64,000 bases of DNA from Bermanella sp. (GTDB lineage Bacteria > Pseudomonadota > Gammaproteobacteria > Pseudomonadales > Oceanobacteraceae), in NCBI GenBank assembly GCA_051277445.1, contig JBNMQC010000003.1:14391-78390 (forward strand), written 5' to 3'. The notes below the pieces were generated by a model. It saw only the letters and a list, made by a program, of their open reading frames with translations, did no database searches and had not been told where the DNA came from. Of the stretch, positions 51,534 through 59,258 are shown piece by piece (within the stretch, counting starts at the first letter, position 1; every line of letters starts with the position of its first letter). Position numbers and translations under genes: made by a program.

Positions 51534-52127
51534 ATGGATAGTACGATGATCACTTGGGCCGTAATTATCGGTGCCATTTTATTTATTGCCATGATGTTTA
51601 ACCGCTTGGTGGCACTGCGTAATCGCCATAAGAATGCGTTCTCGCAAATCGATGTGCAGTTACAGCGTCGTTATGACCTGATCCCTAATTTGGTTGAAAC
51701 CGCTAAAGGGTATGCGAAACATGAACGTGAGACCTTAGAAGCGGTGATCTCGGCGCGTAATGAAGCCAGTGCCATTTTGAAAGGCTTACAAGCCGGCAAT
51801 GCAAACGGTCAATTAGATGTGAGTGCACTTAACGGTGCGGAAGATGTACTGGGCGGCATGATGAGTAAATTATTTGCATTAAGTGAGTCCTACCCAGATC
51901 TTAAAGCGGATGCTCAGTTTCAGCAGCTGATGGAAGAATTGAGTTCAACCGAGAACCGCATCAGTTTTGCCCGCCAAGCATTCAACGATGCGGTGATGGC
52001 TTACAATACCTACCGTGAGTCATTCCCAAGTAATATCATTGCTAACGGGTTTTCATTCCAAGCAGCCAACTTATTAGAGTTTAAAGATAAGGCTATAAAA
52101 AAACCGGTCAAAGTTAACTTTGGTTAA
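51534..52127 (+). CDS. lemA: LemA family protein
   Basis: N-terminal TM, NAFSQIDVQLQRRYDLIPNLV, ESYPDLKA and TENRISFARQAFND motifs. Confidence 0.96.
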   Translation: MDSTMITWAVIIGAILFIAMMFNRLVALRNRHKNAFSQIDVQLQRRYDLIPNLVETAKGYAKHERETLEAVISARNEASAILKGLQAGNANGQLDVSALNGAEDVLGGMMSKLFALSESYPDLKADAQFQQLMEELSSTENRISFARQAFNDAVMAYNTYRESFPSNIIANGFSFQAANLLEFKDKAIKKPVKVNFG

Positions 52128-52159
52128 TGTCTTATAGCTTTAAAAAGTGAACCTGTAAT

Positions 52160-54136
52160 ATGGATTTTTTTGAACACCAAGCCCATGCAAAAGCAGCCAG
52201 TCGTCGGCTGCTTTTGTTGTTTGTGCTGATCTGTTTTGTGTTTATCTCACTGGTAAATAGTGTCTTTTATCTATTTATTCATTTATTTCAAGCGACCCCT
52301 TCGGGTGTGACTGGCCCCAGTTGGTTGATGAGGTTTTTATCGTGGCAGTTTAGTGTCGACGGATTAATTGCCAGTTCCATCTCTATTTTTATTATTGGTA
52401 TTGGTTGCTTGTCTCGTTGGCTTGAATTGCGTAAGGGCGGTAATGGGTTGGCTATTAAAGTGGGCGCACGCTCCCTTGGCTTTGCTTCTAACGTTGAGAA
52501 AGAGCAGCAACTGATTAACGTGGTAGAGGAAATGGCCATCGCGTCAGGAGTTACTTCTCCTGGGGTTTATGTATTGGATCATGAGAAGTCTATTAATGCG
52601 TTTGTCGCAGGGTATAGCTTTCAAGATAGTGCTTTAGTCGTCACCAAAGGCTTGCTCGATAGTATGAGCCGAGATGAACTTCAAGCGGTTGTGGGTCATG
52701 AATTTAGTCATATTCTGCATGGAGACAATCGCATCAATATTCGCCTTCTGGTTTTGTTAGCGGGTTTTGTATGGGTAGTTGAACTCGGTCGTATGATGAT
52801 GGTGGACTCTTATTCACGCCATAAATACGGTGCTAAACATTGGGGGTTTAACTCTTGGAATAAACGCTCAAATAAAGACTCAGGCGCGGTGTTTTTTATC
52901 GGCATCCCTTTGATGATAGCAGGTTACATCGGTTTGTTTTTTGGCATGGTTTTACGTACTGCCATTAGTCGAAAACGAGAATACTTAGCAGACGCCTCTG
53001 CGGTTCAGTTTACGCGTAATCCAGAGGCCTTGGCCAGTGCCTTAAATGTGATTAAAGAAAATGCCCAGCATGGCTTTTTAAAAATGGCGCGGGCAGAAGA
53101 GGTGAGCCACATGTGTATCTCGCCAACAAAGCGATACAGCTGGTTCGCGACGCATCCACCCATTGAAAGCCGAATTAATGTTATCGATAACACGTTTTTT
53201 ACGCGCTTTAAATCGCGAATGCGTAAAAAAGACAAGCAAAAAGAACAGGCACAACAACAAAGCCAGATGAGGCAGGCCGCCAGTAGTATTTATCAGGCAG
53301 ATGTCAGTCGATTACAAAACGAAGGCAATCAGCACTTACATAATGTCATTGGTACTCTAACATTGGCAAATCTTGATTATGCTATAAGCCTGCATGATCA
53401 GATGCCATTTGAATTTCGACAATCTTTACAGGACCCTGAAAAAGCGAGGATTATGTTGCTGTACCTGTTGCTAGACGACAATGAGGTTGTTCGTCAGCAG
53501 CAGCAGGCGTGGTTGCTTGAACAATACCCAGATGCGGCCATGTACTTAAAAACCCTAACCTTGCTTGCCAGTTCGTTACAAGCTCGCTTTGCTATTCCCT
53601 TAGTGGAATTGTTGGTGCCACTGTTGAAAACCTTAGATGGCCAGGTGCAGCAGGGATTATTGGAGCAGGTGTTGGTTCTGGCTAAGTGGGATAAAAAACT
53701 GAATCTATTTGAAATTTGTTTGTATAGCCTGCTTAAGCAATCATTTTCAGAGATTTTACCTAATCGTTCATCTCATACGATTAAAAACATCAATGTTGTG
53801 TCGTATGAATTTAATTACATTATTTCATGTTTGATTCATAACACGGGCAGCGCTGAAAATGAAAGAAGCGCACTGCACAAGCGCATGCTTAATGTGTTTA
53901 CCATGAAGCAAGGTGCATTGATTGAAGAAAAAGAAATCAGTGCGAAAAAACTGTATTTAACGCTTAAAAAATTAGCCTCGCTTTCGCCCATGTTAAAGCG
54001 TTCACTCATGGACGTGTGCGGGGATATTGTCTTGCATGATGGTATTGTGCGTGCGCAAGAGTACGAAGCGCTAAAACTCATTAGTTTAACCTTATCTTGC
54101 CCTATGCCTGCTTTACCTTTAACAACAAGCACTTAA
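52160..54136 (+). CDS. M48 (HtpX-like) membrane zinc metalloprotease with a C-terminal extension
   Basis: NVVEEMAIASG, INAFVAG, HEFSH (HExxH), REYLADA and ATHPP motifs; about 300 extra C-terminal residues. Confidence 0.9.
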   Translation: MDFFEHQAHAKAASRRLLLLFVLICFVFISLVNSVFYLFIHLFQATPSGVTGPSWLMRFLSWQFSVDGLIASSISIFIIGIGCLSRWLELRKGGNGLAIKVGARSLGFASNVEKEQQLINVVEEMAIASGVTSPGVYVLDHEKSINAFVAGYSFQDSALVVTKGLLDSMSRDELQAVVGHEFSHILHGDNRINIRLLVLLAGFVWVVELGRMMMVDSYSRHKYGAKHWGFNSWNKRSNKDSGAVFFIGIPLMIAGYIGLFFGMVLRTAISRKREYLADASAVQFTRNPEALASALNVIKENAQHGFLKMARAEEVSHMCISPTKRYSWFATHPPIESRINVIDNTFFTRFKSRMRKKDKQKEQAQQQSQMRQAASSIYQADVSRLQNEGNQHLHNVIGTLTLANLDYAISLHDQMPFEFRQSLQDPEKARIMLLYLLLDDNEVVRQQQQAWLLEQYPDAAMYLKTLTLLASSLQARFAIPLVELLVPLLKTLDGQVQQGLLEQVLVLAKWDKKLNLFEICLYSLLKQSFSEILPNRSSHTIKNINVVSYEFNYIISCLIHNTGSAENERSALHKRMLNVFTMKQGALIEEKEISAKKLYLTLKKLASLSPMLKRSLMDVCGDIVLHDGIVRAQEYEALKLISLTLSCPMPALPLTTST

Positions 54137-54163: not shown

Positions 54164-54183
54164 GCAATACTTGACTGTATTGC
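54164..54183. promoter_or_regulatory. Palindromic operator centred on a -35-like hexamer
   Basis: GCAATAC-TTGACT-GTATTGC, 58 bp upstream of the first gene of the operon; TATAAT at 54207-54212. Confidence 0.5.
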
Positions 54184-54241: not shown

Positions 54242-55030
54242 ATGTCCACACAGCTAACGCCAGCACAACTTCGTCATGCGATTCGCACGGGCGAGCACAC
54301 GACTAATACCTCTGGCCTATGCCAAGGTTTCGTGCAATGTAACGTAGCGATACTCCCTAAAGCGTGGGCGGATGAATTTCTCCAGTTTTGTCAGTTAAAC
54401 CAAAAACCTTGCCCTGTGGTGGCCATGGCCGCACAACCCGGTGATACGAACCTTGTCGAAATAGCCCCCGATTTTGACATTCGCACCGATGTGCCTAAGT
54501 ACCGTATTTGGAAACATGGTGAGCTTGTGGATGAGGTTGCTGACATCTCTAATGTGTGGCGCGATGATCTCGTCACCTTTTTACTAGGCTGTTCGTTTAG
54601 TTTTGAAGAAGCCTTGATCGCAGATGGTCTAGAAGTACGTAACATTTCTGAAGGCAAGAACGTGCCTATGTACGACACTAACATTGCGTGTCGAGAAGCG
54701 GGTCGTTTCCACGGCAATACGGTGGTGAGTATGCGCCCGTTTAAACCTGCCGATGCTATTCGTATGATTCAAATCTGTAGCCGTTTTCCCTCGGTTCATG
54801 GCGCGCCGATTCATTTTGGTGATCCAGCTGCCATTGGTATTAAGGATATTAATAAGCCCGAATACGGCGATGCAGTGACTATCAAAGACGGTGAAGTGCC
54901 TGTGTTTACCGCTTGTGGTGTGACTCCGCAGGCCGCCATCATGGCGGCAAAGCCTGAGTTTTGTATTACACACTCACCGGGCCACATGGTCGTCACGGAT
55001 ATTCCTAATTCTAAGCTAGCCATTTTATAA
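54242..55030 (+). CDS. DUF1445 family putative hydro-lyase (YcsI-like; N-terminal domain of D-glutamate cyclase)
   Basis: [57 protein letters not shown] and THSPGHM motifs. Confidence 0.9.
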
Positions 55031-55039
55031 GGAGTCATC

Positions 55040-55777
55040 ATGTCGTTGTTATTAAATTGTGATCTTGGTGAAAGTTTTGGCTCTTGGAAAATGGGCTTGG
55101 ACGAGGATGTATTCCCTCATATTGACCAAGCCAACATTGCCTGCGGTTTTCATGGTGGCGACCCGCTTGTAATGATGAAAACCCTAGGCCTAGCTAAAAA
55201 ATACGGTGTGATGGTTGGCGCGCACCCAGCGTATCCAGATCTTGTGGGGTTTGGTCGTCGCTCGATGAATTGTTCCGAGCCTGAAGTCATTGCATTCATG
55301 TTGTATCAGATGAGTGCGATGGACGGCATGGCAAAAACCCAAGGCTTAACCATGGAGTATGTAAAACCCCATGGAGCCTTGTATAACGATATGATGTCCA
55401 AGTTAGATGTGCGTCGTGCCATTATGCAAGCGGTGGCGCAATTCCATCGCCCTGTAAAATTAATGCTGCAAGCCACAAACGATGCCAAGGCCCATGAACA
55501 AGAAGCGGCAGACTTCGGTATTGATCTATTGTTTGAAGCCTTTGCTGATCGCTGTTATGACGACGACGGGAAATTACTCGCGCGCAGTAAACCCGGCGCC
55601 GTGCACACTAAAGAAAAAATGTTGGCGCAAGTAAAGCAGTTAAACGAGCAAGGCACCATTACCTCGGTGAGTGGTAATACCTTACATATAAAGGCGGATT
55701 CTTTATGCGTGCATGGCGACAACCTTGACGGTGTTCAAGCCATCGCTCAGATCCGCCAACTGATTCAAGGGTCATAA
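55040..55777 (+). CDS. pxpA: 5-oxoprolinase subunit A (LamB/YcsF family)
   Basis: LNCDLGESFG, ANIACGFHGGDP, VKPHGALYN, EAFADR.Y and SLCVHGDN motifs. Confidence 0.95.
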   Translation: MSLLLNCDLGESFGSWKMGLDEDVFPHIDQANIACGFHGGDPLVMMKTLGLAKKYGVMVGAHPAYPDLVGFGRRSMNCSEPEVIAFMLYQMSAMDGMAKTQGLTMEYVKPHGALYNDMMSKLDVRRAIMQAVAQFHRPVKLMLQATNDAKAHEQEAADFGIDLLFEAFADRCYDDDGKLLARSKPGAVHTKEKMLAQVKQLNEQGTITSVSGNTLHIKADSLCVHGDNLDGVQAIAQIRQLIQGS

Positions 55778-55778
55778 C

Positions 55779-56480
55779 ATGCGAATTCATGTGGCCGGTG
55801 AAAATGCCTTAATGGTGTATTTTGCAGACACGGTAAGCGATGCCACCAGTGCGCAAATTCAACATACCGCACAAGGGTTAGCCCAGCACTTGGGTGATGT
55901 GCTCATTGATCTTGTGCCCAGTTATGCCTCCATGCTGGTGCTGTTTGATCCGCTCAAAACCGACCATATTCATGTGCGTAAACTCATACGTGGTGCAGCT
56001 TCACACCCTCAAGTTGAGCAAGACTCTCAGCAAGAGAACATTGTGCGTTTGCCCGTTTATTATGGCAGTGAGACCAGCCCAGATCTTGCCCATATTGCGC
56101 AAAATGCAGGTTTAAGCGTTGAGCAAGTGATCGAGATTCATCAACAAACATTGTATCGGGTCTATGCCATTGGCTTTGCCCCAGGTTTTGCGTATCTAGG
56201 TGAAACCGATGCGCTCATCGCCACGCCCCGTCTTGCGACACCACGTAAAAAAGTGCCTAAGGGTGCGGTGGCCATTGCCGATCGTCAAACCGCGGTATAC
56301 CCAGCCCCAAGCCCTGGTGGTTGGAATTTAATAGGCTGTTGTCCCACGCCTATGTTTGATCCAAAAGGTACACCGGCTATGCCTGTACAAGCCGGTGATG
56401 CTGTGCAGTTTTATGCCATCGACAAGGACGAGTTTCTCGCTTTAGGTGGCACTTTTGACGCATGGGGAGAAATCGAATGA
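55779..56480 (+). CDS. pxpB: 5-oxoprolinase subunit B (KipI family)
   Basis: DLVPSYAS, GFAPGFAYLG, PKGAVAIA.RQTAVYP and PGGWNLIG motifs. Confidence 0.95.
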   Translation: MRIHVAGENALMVYFADTVSDATSAQIQHTAQGLAQHLGDVLIDLVPSYASMLVLFDPLKTDHIHVRKLIRGAASHPQVEQDSQQENIVRLPVYYGSETSPDLAHIAQNAGLSVEQVIEIHQQTLYRVYAIGFAPGFAYLGETDALIATPRLATPRKKVPKGAVAIADRQTAVYPAPSPGGWNLIGCCPTPMFDPKGTPAMPVQAGDAVQFYAIDKDEFLALGGTFDAWGEIE

Positions 56481-57436
56481 GCCCGTCTATTCAGATTTTA
56501 AACCCAGGTATTTTAACCCTGATTCAAGATGCTGGGCGTTACGGTCAGCACAGCGTGGGCTTAACCACAGGCGGTCCCATGGACCCGTTGGCGTTCAAGT
56601 GGGCCAATCGCTTAGTGGGCAACGACGAACACGTTAGCGCGTTAGAAACCACAATCGGTGGTATTAAAATCAAGGTGAACAGTTGCACACAAGTGGCAGT
56701 AACCGGAGCGGAAGTCTCCGTGAAGGTCAATGGCCAAGCAAAAGCGCAATGGCAAACCTTAAACTTGAAAGCGAGCGACGAATTAGAGCTGGGCTACGCC
56801 ACACAAGGCTGTCGCATTTATATTGCTTTCGCGAGTGGTCTGAATATCGAGCCACAATTTAACAGTACCAGTACTGTCGTACGTGAGGGTATCGGTGGTT
56901 TAACTGGCAAGGGCCTGCAAGCCGGTGATGTGCTTGAGCTTAACCATGAAACCCTTGAGGACAGCCGCTGGCAGTTACCTGAAAGCGCACGCCCTGTATA
57001 TGAAGACACTGTGACCTTGCGTTTGATACCCGGCTATCAAGAACACCATTTTTCTCGTCATCAACAGCGCATGTTCTTCTATCATGAATATAAGGTCAGT
57101 GACTTGTGTGATCGTATGGGCTATCGCTTAACCGGCCCTAAAGTGACCTGTGATATCGAAGGTATTTTATCTGAAGGGATATGCCTAGGTGCAGTACAAG
57201 TACCAAAAGATGGTCAACCCATCGTGTTGATGAACGACCGCCAAACCATCGGAGGGTATCCCAAAATCGGATCGGTGTTGTCGATAGATTTAGCCAAACT
57301 AGCGCAACTCACCGCCGGTGGCACCGTGAAGTTTGAACCCATAACCATTGACCATGCCCACAACGAATTGGCCCTTGCGCAATATCGCTATCGCCATCAA
57401 GCCCTCGTTGCTGTTACATCCGAGGAAATAAAATGA
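56477..57436 (+). CDS. pxpC: 5-oxoprolinase subunit C (KipA family)
   Basis: IQDAGRYG, GGPMD...ANRLVGN, DRMGYRL, GAVQVP.DGQPI and DRQTIGGYPK motifs; ATGA overlap with pxpB. Confidence 0.95.
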   Translation: MSPSIQILNPGILTLIQDAGRYGQHSVGLTTGGPMDPLAFKWANRLVGNDEHVSALETTIGGIKIKVNSCTQVAVTGAEVSVKVNGQAKAQWQTLNLKASDELELGYATQGCRIYIAFASGLNIEPQFNSTSTVVREGIGGLTGKGLQAGDVLELNHETLEDSRWQLPESARPVYEDTVTLRLIPGYQEHHFSRHQQRMFFYHEYKVSDLCDRMGYRLTGPKVTCDIEGILSEGICLGAVQVPKDGQPIVLMNDRQTIGGYPKIGSVLSIDLAKLAQLTAGGTVKFEPITIDHAHNELALAQYRYRHQALVAVTSEEIK

Positions 57437-58296
57437 GCCAATTAACCACGGCCATGCAGTTAAGCGTTGATATTGAAAACATGCTGGTAGAGCGCAACTT
57501 ACGGGGCATGAAAACCGTACAAGGCGCATTGCCACAAGGTTATGTATTGCGCGCTGCGCAAATGATGCTGCCCATCCGCGGCACGGTGTTGATCGGTACT
57601 GGTTTTCCTGTTGTGGATACGTTTGAAACCGATGGCCCTGTGGGCGCTATTGCACTGTATCAAGCATTCGAAGCGCTTGGTGCAAAGCCGGTGATTGTCT
57701 GTGGCGCGCCATTAAGTCAGGAGCTTGCCCAAACTTATCGCGTGCATGAAATCACCGTGGGCCCCGCTGCCCAGCGCGACGAAGAGGCCCTAAAAGGGTT
57801 AGCCCAATTGCAGCCTGAATTAATCGTATCCATTGAACGCCCAGGTCTGGCGGCCGATGGTAAGTACTACAATATGCGCGGTGAAGACATCAGTGCTCGC
57901 GCAGCTTGCTTCGATACGTTTTTGATTCATGCGCAGTGTCCAACCATCGCCATTGGCGATGGTGGCAACGAAATCGGTATGGGCAATATTCAAGACGCCT
58001 TAAAAGGGTTGGACATTCAAGCGGCGGCCACGGGCTGTAATGAGTTAGTGATTGCTGATGTTTCTAACTGGGCCGCACTGGGTTTGATTGCCATGTTGGA
58101 TTGGTTAAGCGGTCAAGACTTACTGGCCAAGTTAGATGCCATGGCGGTATTAGAATTCTTATCCAAACACGGCAGCGTGGATGGCGTGACCCGAGAAAAC
58201 ACATTAACCGAAGACGGTTTGCCTGCTCAGGATGGCATTGATTTATTGAACCGCTTACGAACGTTAGTCAGTGACAAGAAATTAGTTAGTCAATAA
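57433..58296 (+). CDS. DUF4392 family protein (D-glutamate cyclase-like C-terminal domain)
   Basis: GTGFP, ETDGPVGA, SIERPG, YYNMRG, IGDGGNEIGMG, VSNWAA and DGVT motifs; ATGA overlap with pxpC. Confidence 0.88.
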   Translation: MSQLTTAMQLSVDIENMLVERNLRGMKTVQGALPQGYVLRAAQMMLPIRGTVLIGTGFPVVDTFETDGPVGAIALYQAFEALGAKPVIVCGAPLSQELAQTYRVHEITVGPAAQRDEEALKGLAQLQPELIVSIERPGLAADGKYYNMRGEDISARAACFDTFLIHAQCPTIAIGDGGNEIGMGNIQDALKGLDIQAAATGCNELVIADVSNWAALGLIAMLDWLSGQDLLAKLDAMAVLEFLSKHGSVDGVTRENTLTEDGLPAQDGIDLLNRLRTLVSDKKLVSQ

Positions 58297-58321: not shown

Positions 58322-59179
58322 ATGAGCATTGTATATTTAGACAATAGTTATATGCCGATGTCTGAGGCAAAAATTTCACCCATGGACCGTGGTTTTTTGT
58401 TTGGTGATGGCATCTATGAAGTGATTCCCGCTTATGATGGAAAGCTGGTGGGTTTTGGCCCGCACATTGATCGTATGAATCAAGGTTTGGAATTAATTGG
58501 TATTGATTTCAAATGGAACCAAGACCAGTGGCGTGAAGTGTGTGAGCAACTGATTGCCAAAAACGAAGGTGATAATCTAGGTATTTATTTACACGTCAGT
58601 CGTGGTGCCGATACCAAGCGTTTTCATGCCTATCCAGAAAATGTGGCGCCAACGGTATTTGCTTACGCGTTTGAAATTCCACCGGCGAATGTGCCAGACA
58701 AAACAAAAGCAAAAGGCTATAAAGTGGCCACGACACAAGACATGCGCTGGCAGCGTTGCAATATTAAATCCACCGCGTTGTTAGGCAACGTGATGCATTT
58801 CCAATTTGGTTATGCACAGGGTTACAACGAAACCTTACTTTATAATGCAAAAAATGAATTAACCGAAGCCGGTGCATGTAATGCTTACATCGTTAAAGAC
58901 GGTGTAGTGATTACACCGCCATTGGATAACCAAATTCTACCGGGTATTACCCGTTTAATGTTGCTAGAAATTCTTGCTAAATATAGCGACATTAAGGTAG
59001 AAGAGCGCATTGTCACCATGGATGAAGTGTTCAATGCCGACGAAGTGTGGATTACCAGCTCATCAAAAGAAATCGCACCAGTGGTTGAAATTGATGGTAA
59101 GCCAGTTGGTAATGGTGAAGTGGGTGATGTGTGGCTTGCTGCGCAAACTCAGTACACCGCACACAAATTTGAGTTTTAA
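58322..59179 (+). CDS. dat: D-amino acid aminotransferase (PLP fold type IV)
   Basis: DRGFLFGDGIYE, YLHVSRG...KRFH (the Arg/His pair typical of canonical DAATs), RCNIKST (PLP Lys), ILPGITR and TSSSKE motifs. Confidence 0.85.
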   Translation: MSIVYLDNSYMPMSEAKISPMDRGFLFGDGIYEVIPAYDGKLVGFGPHIDRMNQGLELIGIDFKWNQDQWREVCEQLIAKNEGDNLGIYLHVSRGADTKRFHAYPENVAPTVFAYAFEIPPANVPDKTKAKGYKVATTQDMRWQRCNIKSTALLGNVMHFQFGYAQGYNETLLYNAKNELTEAGACNAYIVKDGVVITPPLDNQILPGITRLMLLEILAKYSDIKVEERIVTMDEVFNADEVWITSSSKEIAPVVEIDGKPVGNGEVGDVWLAAQTQYTAHKFEF

Positions 59180-59222: not shown

Positions 59223-59258
59223 AAAAGCCTGTCTTTATTTTTAAAGATGGGCTTTTTT
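59223..59258 (+). terminator. Intrinsic terminator of the pxp-dat operon
   Basis: AAAAGCCTGTCTTTA...TAAAGATGGGC-T6. Confidence 0.8.

Follow-up and report, generated by a model that had tools for sequence, protein, structure and literature searches.

The window analyzed here, a 64,000-nucleotide stretch of contig JBNMQC010000003.1 from Bermanella sp., carries a tightly packed six-gene operon (Table 1). The first gene encodes a protein of the DUF1445 family and is followed by the genes for PxpA, PxpB and PxpC, which together form an adenosine triphosphate (ATP)-dependent 5-oxoprolinase, then by a DUF4392 gene, a D-amino-acid transaminase gene (Dat), and a terminator. An earlier reading of these letters, made without database searches (the sequence-only reading), had argued that the operon needs a D-to-L step between a cyclase and PxpABC and had proposed that the DUF1445 protein is a two-base 5-oxoproline racemase. 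The operon is real, as judged by gene calls and by profile matches of all six genes. The DUF1445 protein, whose function is the question here, is an ordinary full-length member of a known family, YcsI/UPF0317 (DUF1445). It matches PF07286 in a Pfam scan with an E-value of 7.5e-68 and 227.3 bits, against a cut-off of 25, and the NCBIfam equivalog PRK05463 with 415.7 bits, against a cut-off of 324, over residues 3-260. PRK05463 is entitled 'putative hydro-lyase', the usual label according to the sequence-only reading, and the current Pfam name of PF07286 is 'D-Glu_cyclase'. The nearest sequences, at 95% identity, belong to marine Oceanospirillales-type bacteria such as Bermanella, and 3547 relatives were recovered when 1.84 billion cluster representatives were searched in full with HMMER.

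Table 1. Coordinates of the DUF1445 gene, its conserved residues, and the remainder of the operon within the window
Feature	Position	Strand	Basis
Perfect 7-bp inverted repeat GCAATAC-N6-GTATTGC, candidate operator	54164..54183	+	read from sequence
DUF1445/UPF0317/YcsI-family gene (262 aa)	54242..55030	+	stop-free translation, profile and structure matches
Cys57 codon, third conserved Cys	54410..54412	+	family alignment
Cys117 codon (TGT), GCSFSFE motif	54590..54592	+	read from sequence
His186 codon, HG.P motif	54797..54799	+	family alignment
Cys225 codon (TGT), ACGVTPQ motif	54914..54916	+	read from sequence
pxpA (LamB/YcsF), 5-oxoprolinase subunit A	55040..55777	+	PF03746, E 3.1e-88; NCBIfam PxpA subfamily, 338 bits
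pxpB	55779..56480	+	PF02682, E 3.2e-69; TIGR00370, 165 bits, above cut-off
pxpC	56462..57436	+	PF02626, E 4.5e-88; TIGR00724, 277 bits
DUF4392/GLUCM-like_C gene (TON_0340 family), other half of animal D-glutamate cyclase	57433..58296	+	PF14336, E 1.1e-67
D-amino-acid transaminase, class IV (Dat)	58322..59179	+	PF01063, E 6.1e-51
Terminator-like hairpin at operon end	59223..59256	+	15-pair stem, then T run

The DUF4392 protein aligns with the structures of TON_0340 at an E-value of about 1e-31, and all six metal-binding acidic residues described for that protein (PMC5132392) are aligned, so that the DUF4392 protein of the window could credibly be a catalyst by itself. In NCBIfam, Dat matches best to D-amino-acid transaminase models, scoring 254.6 bits (cut-off 320) and 238.2 bits (cut-off 277), in both cases under the threshold. 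A search of the genome finds a single PxpA, together with a MurI scoring 193 bits against a cut-off of 146.65. On these grounds PxpABC would be a housekeeping enzyme, presumably specific for the L form. The presence of MurI also rules out Dat as the sole source of cell-wall D-glutamate (D-Glu) in this organism.

Two cysteines, one in the motif GCSFSFE and the other in ACGVTPQ, had been singled out by the sequence-only reading, each as being followed by small or hydroxyl residues. Both codons are confirmed, as Cys117 and Cys225, with Ser118 and Ser120 after the former and Gly226 and Thr228 after the latter. Their conservation across the family, named beforehand as a point to check, is about 93% for each. 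The set consulted comprises the best 150 of the 3547 relatives, all of them representatives of 50%-identity clusters and roughly 40-60% identical to the window protein. Position 117 is Cys in 140 of 150 representatives and otherwise Ser or Gly, and position 225 is Cys in 127 of 136; average column identity in an alignment of 68 sequences is only 27%, far under the value for either Cys. Both are retained in 31 of 32 proteobacterial genome copies of DUF1445 and in about 106 of 110 long fused forms, the exceptions being three truncated forms fused to PxpA and one with Ile at position 225. Both motifs (GCS..FE and ACGVTPQ) are likewise retained in the solved structures 3DB9 and 2PIF. The two cysteines are thereby confirmed as real and as conserved far beyond background.

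Other residues are conserved to a similar degree. Cys57 is 87% conserved and occurs in 31 of 32 genome copies, with Leu in its place in the D-glutamate cyclases of fish and snake. His186, by comparison, is invariant wherever tabulated (32/32 genome copies, 110/110 long forms, and a variant, P0143, in which Ser replaces both Cys117 and Cys225). The fish and snake proteins, which are annotated as mitochondrial D-glutamate cyclase, retain equivalents of Cys117, Cys225 and His186. From bacteria to vertebrates, conservation exceeds 95% at about 17 polar and Gly/Pro positions, among them Arg11, Thr23, Gln32, Asn53, Tyr87, Ser118 and Asp253. The window protein holds every residue conserved family-wide, namely these seven together with Gly116-Cys117 preceding Ser118, His186-Gly187-x-Pro189, Cys225 and Thr228. 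One or both cysteines are missing from 12 full-length representatives, in the combinations S/C, G/C, C/S, S/S, S/T and S/H at 117/225. A stricter tally counts 114 C/C sequences, seven without Cys117 only, three without Cys225 only, and three without both. Joint loss exceeds chance expectation (three double losses; Fisher p 0.006, phylogeny ignored).

An AlphaFold model built with the 68-sequence alignment reached a predicted local distance difference test (pLDDT) score of 96.3, as compared to only 41 for a single-sequence model. It reproduces the fold of 2PIF and 3DB9, with template-modeling (TM) scores of 0.84-0.94, Foldseek E-values of 1e-32 to 1e-28, and a VIA Z of 33.5 over 248 residues. 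In the model, Cys117 lies between strand 110-116 and helix 118-127, and Cys225 lies between strand 219-224 and helix 227-236. Structural matches to small domains cover either residues 116/118 to 224/225 or residues 27 to 262 with only about 90 residues aligned. The modeled chain thus seems to exit one ferredoxin-like sub-domain at Cys117 and to re-enter it at Cys225, such that both cysteines would mark inter-domain crossovers. Segments 107-149 and 215-255 align Cys-to-Cys across 26-41 columns (hhalign profile-profile P 9e-5 to 3e-4), a weak sign of an internal repeat. Placement at a strand end and helix start, the crossovers, and the putative repeat would all fit an active-site cleft holding two equivalent cysteines. 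Outside its own family, the sole solved fold matching DUF1445 is the NrpR-like sensor domain 3NEK (MJ0159; Z 9.8, 166 aligned residues, Foldseek E 1e-5, 11% identity), which is a transcription-factor ligand domain and not known as an enzyme. One sub-domain also resembles PII/CutA-type folds, at Z 3-4.

The company kept by DUF1445 is more informative as to its role. In an even set of 301 genomes from the same phylum, surveyed with phylogeny ignored, DUF1445 is found in 33 (about 11%), PxpA in 82, and DUF4392 in 11. PxpA is present in 29 of the 33 DUF1445 genomes versus 53 of the 268 that are DUF1445-negative. The four DUF1445 genomes without PxpA (G020, G027, G039 and G278) are exactly those in which DUF1445 adjoins a HyuA/HyuB-type 5-oxoprolinase of 1200-1270 amino acids (L007, L010, L014 and L026), so that an ATP-dependent oxoprolinase of either unrelated type occurs in 33 of 33. 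In the sampled genomes, DUF1445 is therefore coupled without exception to ATP-dependent 5-oxoprolinases, and its partner is swapped for a non-homologous oxoprolinase while DUF1445 itself persists.

Fusions repeat this pattern. A survey of longer DUF1445-containing forms revealed six full-length clusters of DUF1445-HyuA-HyuB proteins, 1477-1553 amino acids long (P0069, P0098, P0293, P0333, P0395 and P0401), along with pieces in which DUF1445 is joined to HyuB only (P0101, P0114 and P0119). Fusion to PxpC occurs in six clusters, one of which has 75 members, and fusion to PxpA in four, three of them possibly read-through calls. Of the top 120 long forms, 65 carry DUF4392 as the fusion partner, in either domain order. 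DUF1445 is also fused to pyridoxal phosphate (PLP) enzymes and to O6-methylguanine-DNA methyltransferase (MGMT).

Neighborhoods were tallied for 32 DUF1445 loci within 9 kb. PxpABC is encoded in 14 of these and a LysR regulator in 17, while TRAP transporter genes (DctPQM) occur in about 11 and a Liv-type ATP-binding cassette transporter in about six. The usual locus consists of LysR, DUF1445, a TRAP or Liv-type transporter, and an oxoprolinase; the layout PxpA-NRAMP-DUF1445-PxpBC plus GntR is seen in L005, L006 and L013. The DctP protein adjoining DUF1445 matches structures 2PFY (E 1.8e-93), 2PFZ (2.7e-72) and 6WGM (1.9e-66), the remaining DctP structures scoring about 1e-20. We take 2PFY and 2PFZ to be BP1887 and BP1891. 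These two proteins of B. pertussis are DctP-type and bind pyroglutamate (PMC12344293). DUF4392 lies near DUF1445 in only four of the 32 loci and Dat in three, and 28 have neither nearby. Dat is confined to six-gene operons, always next to DUF4392. DUF4392, in turn, is absent from 26 of the 33 DUF1445 genomes and is present without DUF1445 in four genomes. Since Dat follows DUF4392 rather than DUF1445, and DUF4392 can occur alone, the simplest order of steps runs from Dat through DUF4392 and DUF1445 to the oxoprolinase, which in the window suggests the pathway Dat, DUF4392, DUF1445, PxpABC.

Several known systems share parts of this arrangement. PSPTO_5379 (PDB 2PIF) and Atu3911 (PDB 3DB9), both UPF0317 proteins from structural genomics, resemble the window protein in family and fold at 46-49% identity; neither has a published function, and both have Ala at position 50. 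Bacillus subtilis YcsI is encoded, as in the window, by a DUF1445 gene within a pxpABC operon, and a control search of B. subtilis recovered both PF07286 and PF03746. The order there is presumably ycsF(pxpA)-ycsG-ycsI-kipI(pxpB)-kipA(pxpC), with neither DUF4392 nor Dat, and corresponds to the layout of L005, L006 and L013. The ycsI gene itself has been used merely as a polarity control (PMC10448178). The vertebrate mitochondrial protein DGLUCY/C14orf159 (EC 4.2.1.48) combines DUF1445 and DUF4392 domains (PMC5339696, PMC5132392), and the window contains the same pairing as two separate genes, the first and fifth of the operon. Unlike the window proteins, DGLUCY is a single fused polypeptide in which Cys57 is missing, and its gene is not linked to one for a 5-oxoprolinase. 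The cofactor-independent two-thiol racemases, which act on glutamate, aspartate and hydantoin or include proline racemase and DapF, are like the window protein in having two conserved cysteines at helix starts on two related units. They also share natural Cys-to-Ser/Thr variants and, as the would-be substrate class, a small alpha-substituted carboxylate. No similarity in sequence or fold was detected between them and DUF1445, however, and this likeness would be a resemblance of design that gives no evidence of homology.

An enzyme that delivers 5-oxo-L-proline to the oxoprolinase would explain the obligate pairing, the exchange of one partner for a non-homologous one, and the fusions. The sequence-only reading had held that a D-to-L step is needed ahead of PxpABC; DUF1445 does adjoin oxoprolinases, as such a step would require. 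If pyroglutamate is imported, or if DUF4392 makes the D-lactam, a D/L racemase is the simplest enzyme of this kind. Hydrolysis of the lactam runs against the equilibrium between Glu and 5-oxoproline, the direction of which is known. A plain D-Glu cyclase would consequently yield a dead-end product when working beside an L-specific oxoprolinase, and would enter a futile cycle beside one that accepts the D form. We tentatively propose that DUF1445 is a two-base 5-oxoproline racemase, with a fold new among cofactor-independent racemases. This is the mechanism we rate most likely, a plausible and live hypothesis that falls well short of probable, and its substrate and all of its catalytic steps are ones that we infer. 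In the proposed scheme, Dat would transfer D-amino-acid nitrogen onto 2-oxoglutarate to give D-Glu, which DUF4392, a Mn-site protein, would cyclize to 5-oxo-D-proline. The cleft that separates the two sub-domains of DUF1445 would then take up 5-oxo-D-proline, and a two-base proton shuttle would interconvert it with 5-oxo-L-proline, with Cys117 and Cys225, each at a helix start, as the opposed thiol/thiolate pair. PxpABC would finally open 5-oxo-L-proline to L-Glu at the expense of ATP, pulling the whole chain forward. Conservation and joint loss of the cysteines, their equivalent placement, the absence of Pxp neighbors around S/S copies, and the pairing with oxoprolinases all speak for the racemase that the sequence-only reading had put forward, whereas the lack of a match to any known racemase fold and a vertebrate cyclase with the same two cysteines speak against it.

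That vertebrate enzyme is one of several points that weigh against a racemase. Conversion of D-Glu to 5-oxo-D-proline has been shown for the mouse fused, two-domain DGLUCY only, in work that resolved D and L standards. The same enzyme formed no L-Glu and had no glutamate racemase activity, and humans excrete mainly the D-lactam (PMC5339696). An active racemase domain should blur the D-only product of the animal enzyme. Since the vertebrate cyclase retains both cysteines and the mouse product is 5-oxo-D-proline, the two conserved cysteines alone are no indicator of a racemase. Nor do all relatives beside Pxp proteins have them both: a C/S variant (117/225) lies directly 3' of pxpC, and an S/C variant lies in a cluster of biotin-carboxylase and PxpABC-like genes, so that both cysteines are not strictly required in such settings. 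The S/S, S/H and S/T variants are located elsewhere or with PxpA only. PxpABC paralogues, moreover, are able to act on other lactams (bioRxiv 10.1101/2021.12.09.472016). The caution in the sequence-only reading that the folds may be unrelated agrees with the searches made here. No Asp/Glu-racemase or DapF/proline-racemase structure appears among the Foldseek hits or among 48,161 VIA-aligned chains, although absence from these is not proof of a different fold. A sequence-profile search of PDB sequences likewise gave no racemase at E<=10, and a Pfam scan at E<=0.001 returned PF07286 alone, with neither PF01177 nor the DapF/Pro_racemase families. The proximity of Cys117 to Cys225 is deduced from the topology of the model only. 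The literature searched contained no report of a 5-oxoproline racemase or of any activity for a bacterial DUF1445 protein. Conserved Cys57 and His186, furthermore, allow readings in which these residues form a nucleophile or a metal site. A four-ligand Cys3-His structural metal site (Cys57, Cys117, His186 and Cys225) is unlikely, because vertebrates and some fusions drop Cys57 only, and is also unfavored by single Cys-to-Ser and Cys-to-Gly variants that retain His186; a Cys2-His catalytic site may exist. The racemase idea is, in sum, strengthened by genomic coupling and weakened by the product of the animal enzyme and by the apparently unrelated fold.

Ranked just below the racemase, and nearly as likely in our view, is the possibility that DUF1445, alone or with DUF4392, is the hydro-lyase of D-glutamate cyclase, interconverting D-Glu with 5-oxo-D-proline and water. 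The operon would then handle the enantiomers in parallel, PxpABC opening the L form with ATP while DUF1445 (with or without DUF4392) equilibrates the D form with D-Glu, to be drained by Dat to 2-oxoglutarate or used by MurD. The cysteines, possibly with His186, would not be racemase bases but would provide a nucleophile, an acid or metal ligands. Such an assignment calls for no new enzyme class and agrees with both the Pfam and the NCBIfam names. It corresponds to the sole experimentally shown activity of any protein with a DUF1445 domain, that of mouse DGLUCY (PMC5339696), and it accommodates the retention of Cys117, Cys225 and His186 in vertebrate orthologues, the survival of one-Cys variants in pxp clusters, and Dat as a sink for D-Glu in the same operon. 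Either domain of DGLUCY could be the catalytic one, however, and it is DUF4392 that holds a conserved Mn-binding acidic cluster (PMC5132392). DUF4392 is, in addition, missing from most DUF1445 genomes, and most loci have neither it nor Dat nearby (the 26 of 33 and 28 of 32 counted above). At such loci forward cyclization would lead to a dead-end product and reverse hydrolysis would go against equilibrium. Two parallel branches also do not predict obligate pairing and fusion with two unrelated oxoprolinases.

That pairing, and the association with transporters, would be accounted for if DUF1445 were some other lyase that forms 5-oxoproline, in the manner of gamma-glutamyl cyclotransferase or glutaminyl cyclase. 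An imported compound, gamma-glutamyl or related, would release the ring, and the oxoprolinase would then open it, in a bacterial short gamma-glutamyl cycle. M20 peptidase and amidase-signature genes do occur in several DUF1445 loci, and D-Glu cyclization can formally be regarded as this reaction, water being what leaves. The adjoining TRAP binding protein, however, falls in the pyroglutamate-binding DctP group, suggesting that the cell takes up the ring already formed. Such a lyase would also leave the link to DUF4392 and Dat unexplained and would require enantiomer preference to switch among close relatives with identical conserved residues. We regard this possibility as improbable. Slightly further down we place a non-enzymatic role, in which DUF1445 would be a small-molecule sensing subunit or domain that binds Glu, 2-oxoglutarate or 5-oxoproline and tunes the 5-oxoprolinase or cyclase. 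In favor of such a role are the sensor domain 3NEK as the one structural relative beyond the family, a sub-domain that is PII/CutA-like, and the diversity of the fusion partners (HyuAB, PxpA, PxpC, DUF4392, PLP enzymes and MGMT); NrpR, for its part, responds to 2-oxoglutarate (PMC4902934). The strict conservation of some 17 positions from bacteria to vertebrates is nevertheless a better match to a fixed catalytic site, and DUF1445 is mostly a separate protein of 260 amino acids in catabolic operons that have LysR or GntR regulators of their own. Whatever probability remains beyond these four explanations is unassigned.

Two crystal structures of the UPF0317/YcsI family have been available since 2007-2008, and its bacterial members have no assigned chemistry. 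Animal D-glutamate cyclase, of which DUF1445 makes up half, has been linked to heart failure (PMC5339696). Coupling to oxoprolinases of two unrelated types narrows the job of DUF1445 to the 5-oxoproline ring. Were the racemase proposal true, it would add a new racemase fold and a new salvage route for D-glutamate and D-pyroglutamate. With DUF4392 as a Mn-dependent D-glutamate cyclase and PxpABC or the HyuAB-type enzyme acting last, bacteria would have an irreversible conversion of D-Glu to L-Glu via the lactam, with chemistry analogous to that of the N-acetyl-D-glutamate racemase route. An overlooked second activity would also belong to the N-terminal domain of animal D-glutamate cyclase, which would be reason to re-examine the animal enzyme. 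Should the proposal be false, the family is most likely a D-specific lactam hydro-lyase, with the operon serving both enantiomers in parallel.

The fusion survey brought additional forms to light. The DNA-binding domain of O6-methylguanine-DNA methyltransferase (PF01035) is recurrently joined to DUF1445, as in P0004, P0019, P0023, P0328, P0346 and about ten more, and Cafeteria roenbergensis, a protist, has one such fusion. A sponge, a choanoflagellate and cnidarians have DUF1445 fused to DUF4392 (P0093, P0032, P0400 and P0073). These invertebrate and choanoflagellate fusions are at odds with the statement that DUF1445 is conserved in vertebrates only (PMC5339696).

DUF1445 variants without the full cysteine pair are found in a range of surroundings. 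Two S/S copies, in L034 (9056-9946) and L037 (4596-6149), have no Pxp, HyuAB or pyroglutamate-transporter neighbors. The former adjoins a CitMHS transporter gene, and the latter has genes for RidA, a luciferase-like monooxygenase, a MaoC dehydratase and a cupin nearby. A Ser117/His225 variant (L039:4086-4895, L040:5667-6476 and L041:4086-4895) begins at the final base of the gene for a class A penicillin-binding protein, with an AMIN/Amidase_3 cell-wall amidase encoded upstream; the setting is one of peptidoglycan genes and contains no oxoprolinase. The Ser117/Cys225 variant in L042:3199-11196 and L043:336-8360 follows genes for LamB/YcsF, biotin carboxyl carrier, biotin carboxylase, and PxpB-like and PxpC-like proteins, with an Amdase/Asp_Glu_race-type gene nearby on the opposite strand; the cluster appears to be a biotin-dependent relative of the oxoprolinase system.

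Among the remaining loci, L021, L024 and L036 have a DUF2848 gene and an amidase-signature gene after DctM, between the TRAP transporter and PxpABC. Lone DUF4392 genes in genomes without DUF1445 (L046:7434-11008, L047:7643-11250 and L048:8757-12368) stand beside class V aminotransferases and a protein of 430-456 amino acids that Pfam does not match; one of them also adjoins a Mur-ligase-like gene. Neighbors of DUF1445 designated 'c3' in GC-rich genomes proved to be antisense open reading frames of DUF1445 and not genes.

Upstream of the operon in the window, no regulator gene adjoins either the operon or the perfect inverted repeat that precedes it. The repeat lies 59 nucleotides 5' of the operon start codon, has a spacer (TTGACT) that resembles a -35 hexamer, and is a possible operator. 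Further upstream, positions 51534-54136 contain a LemA-family gene and then a gene for a 658-amino-acid M48 (HtpX-like) peptidase, which ends 105 nucleotides before the operon.

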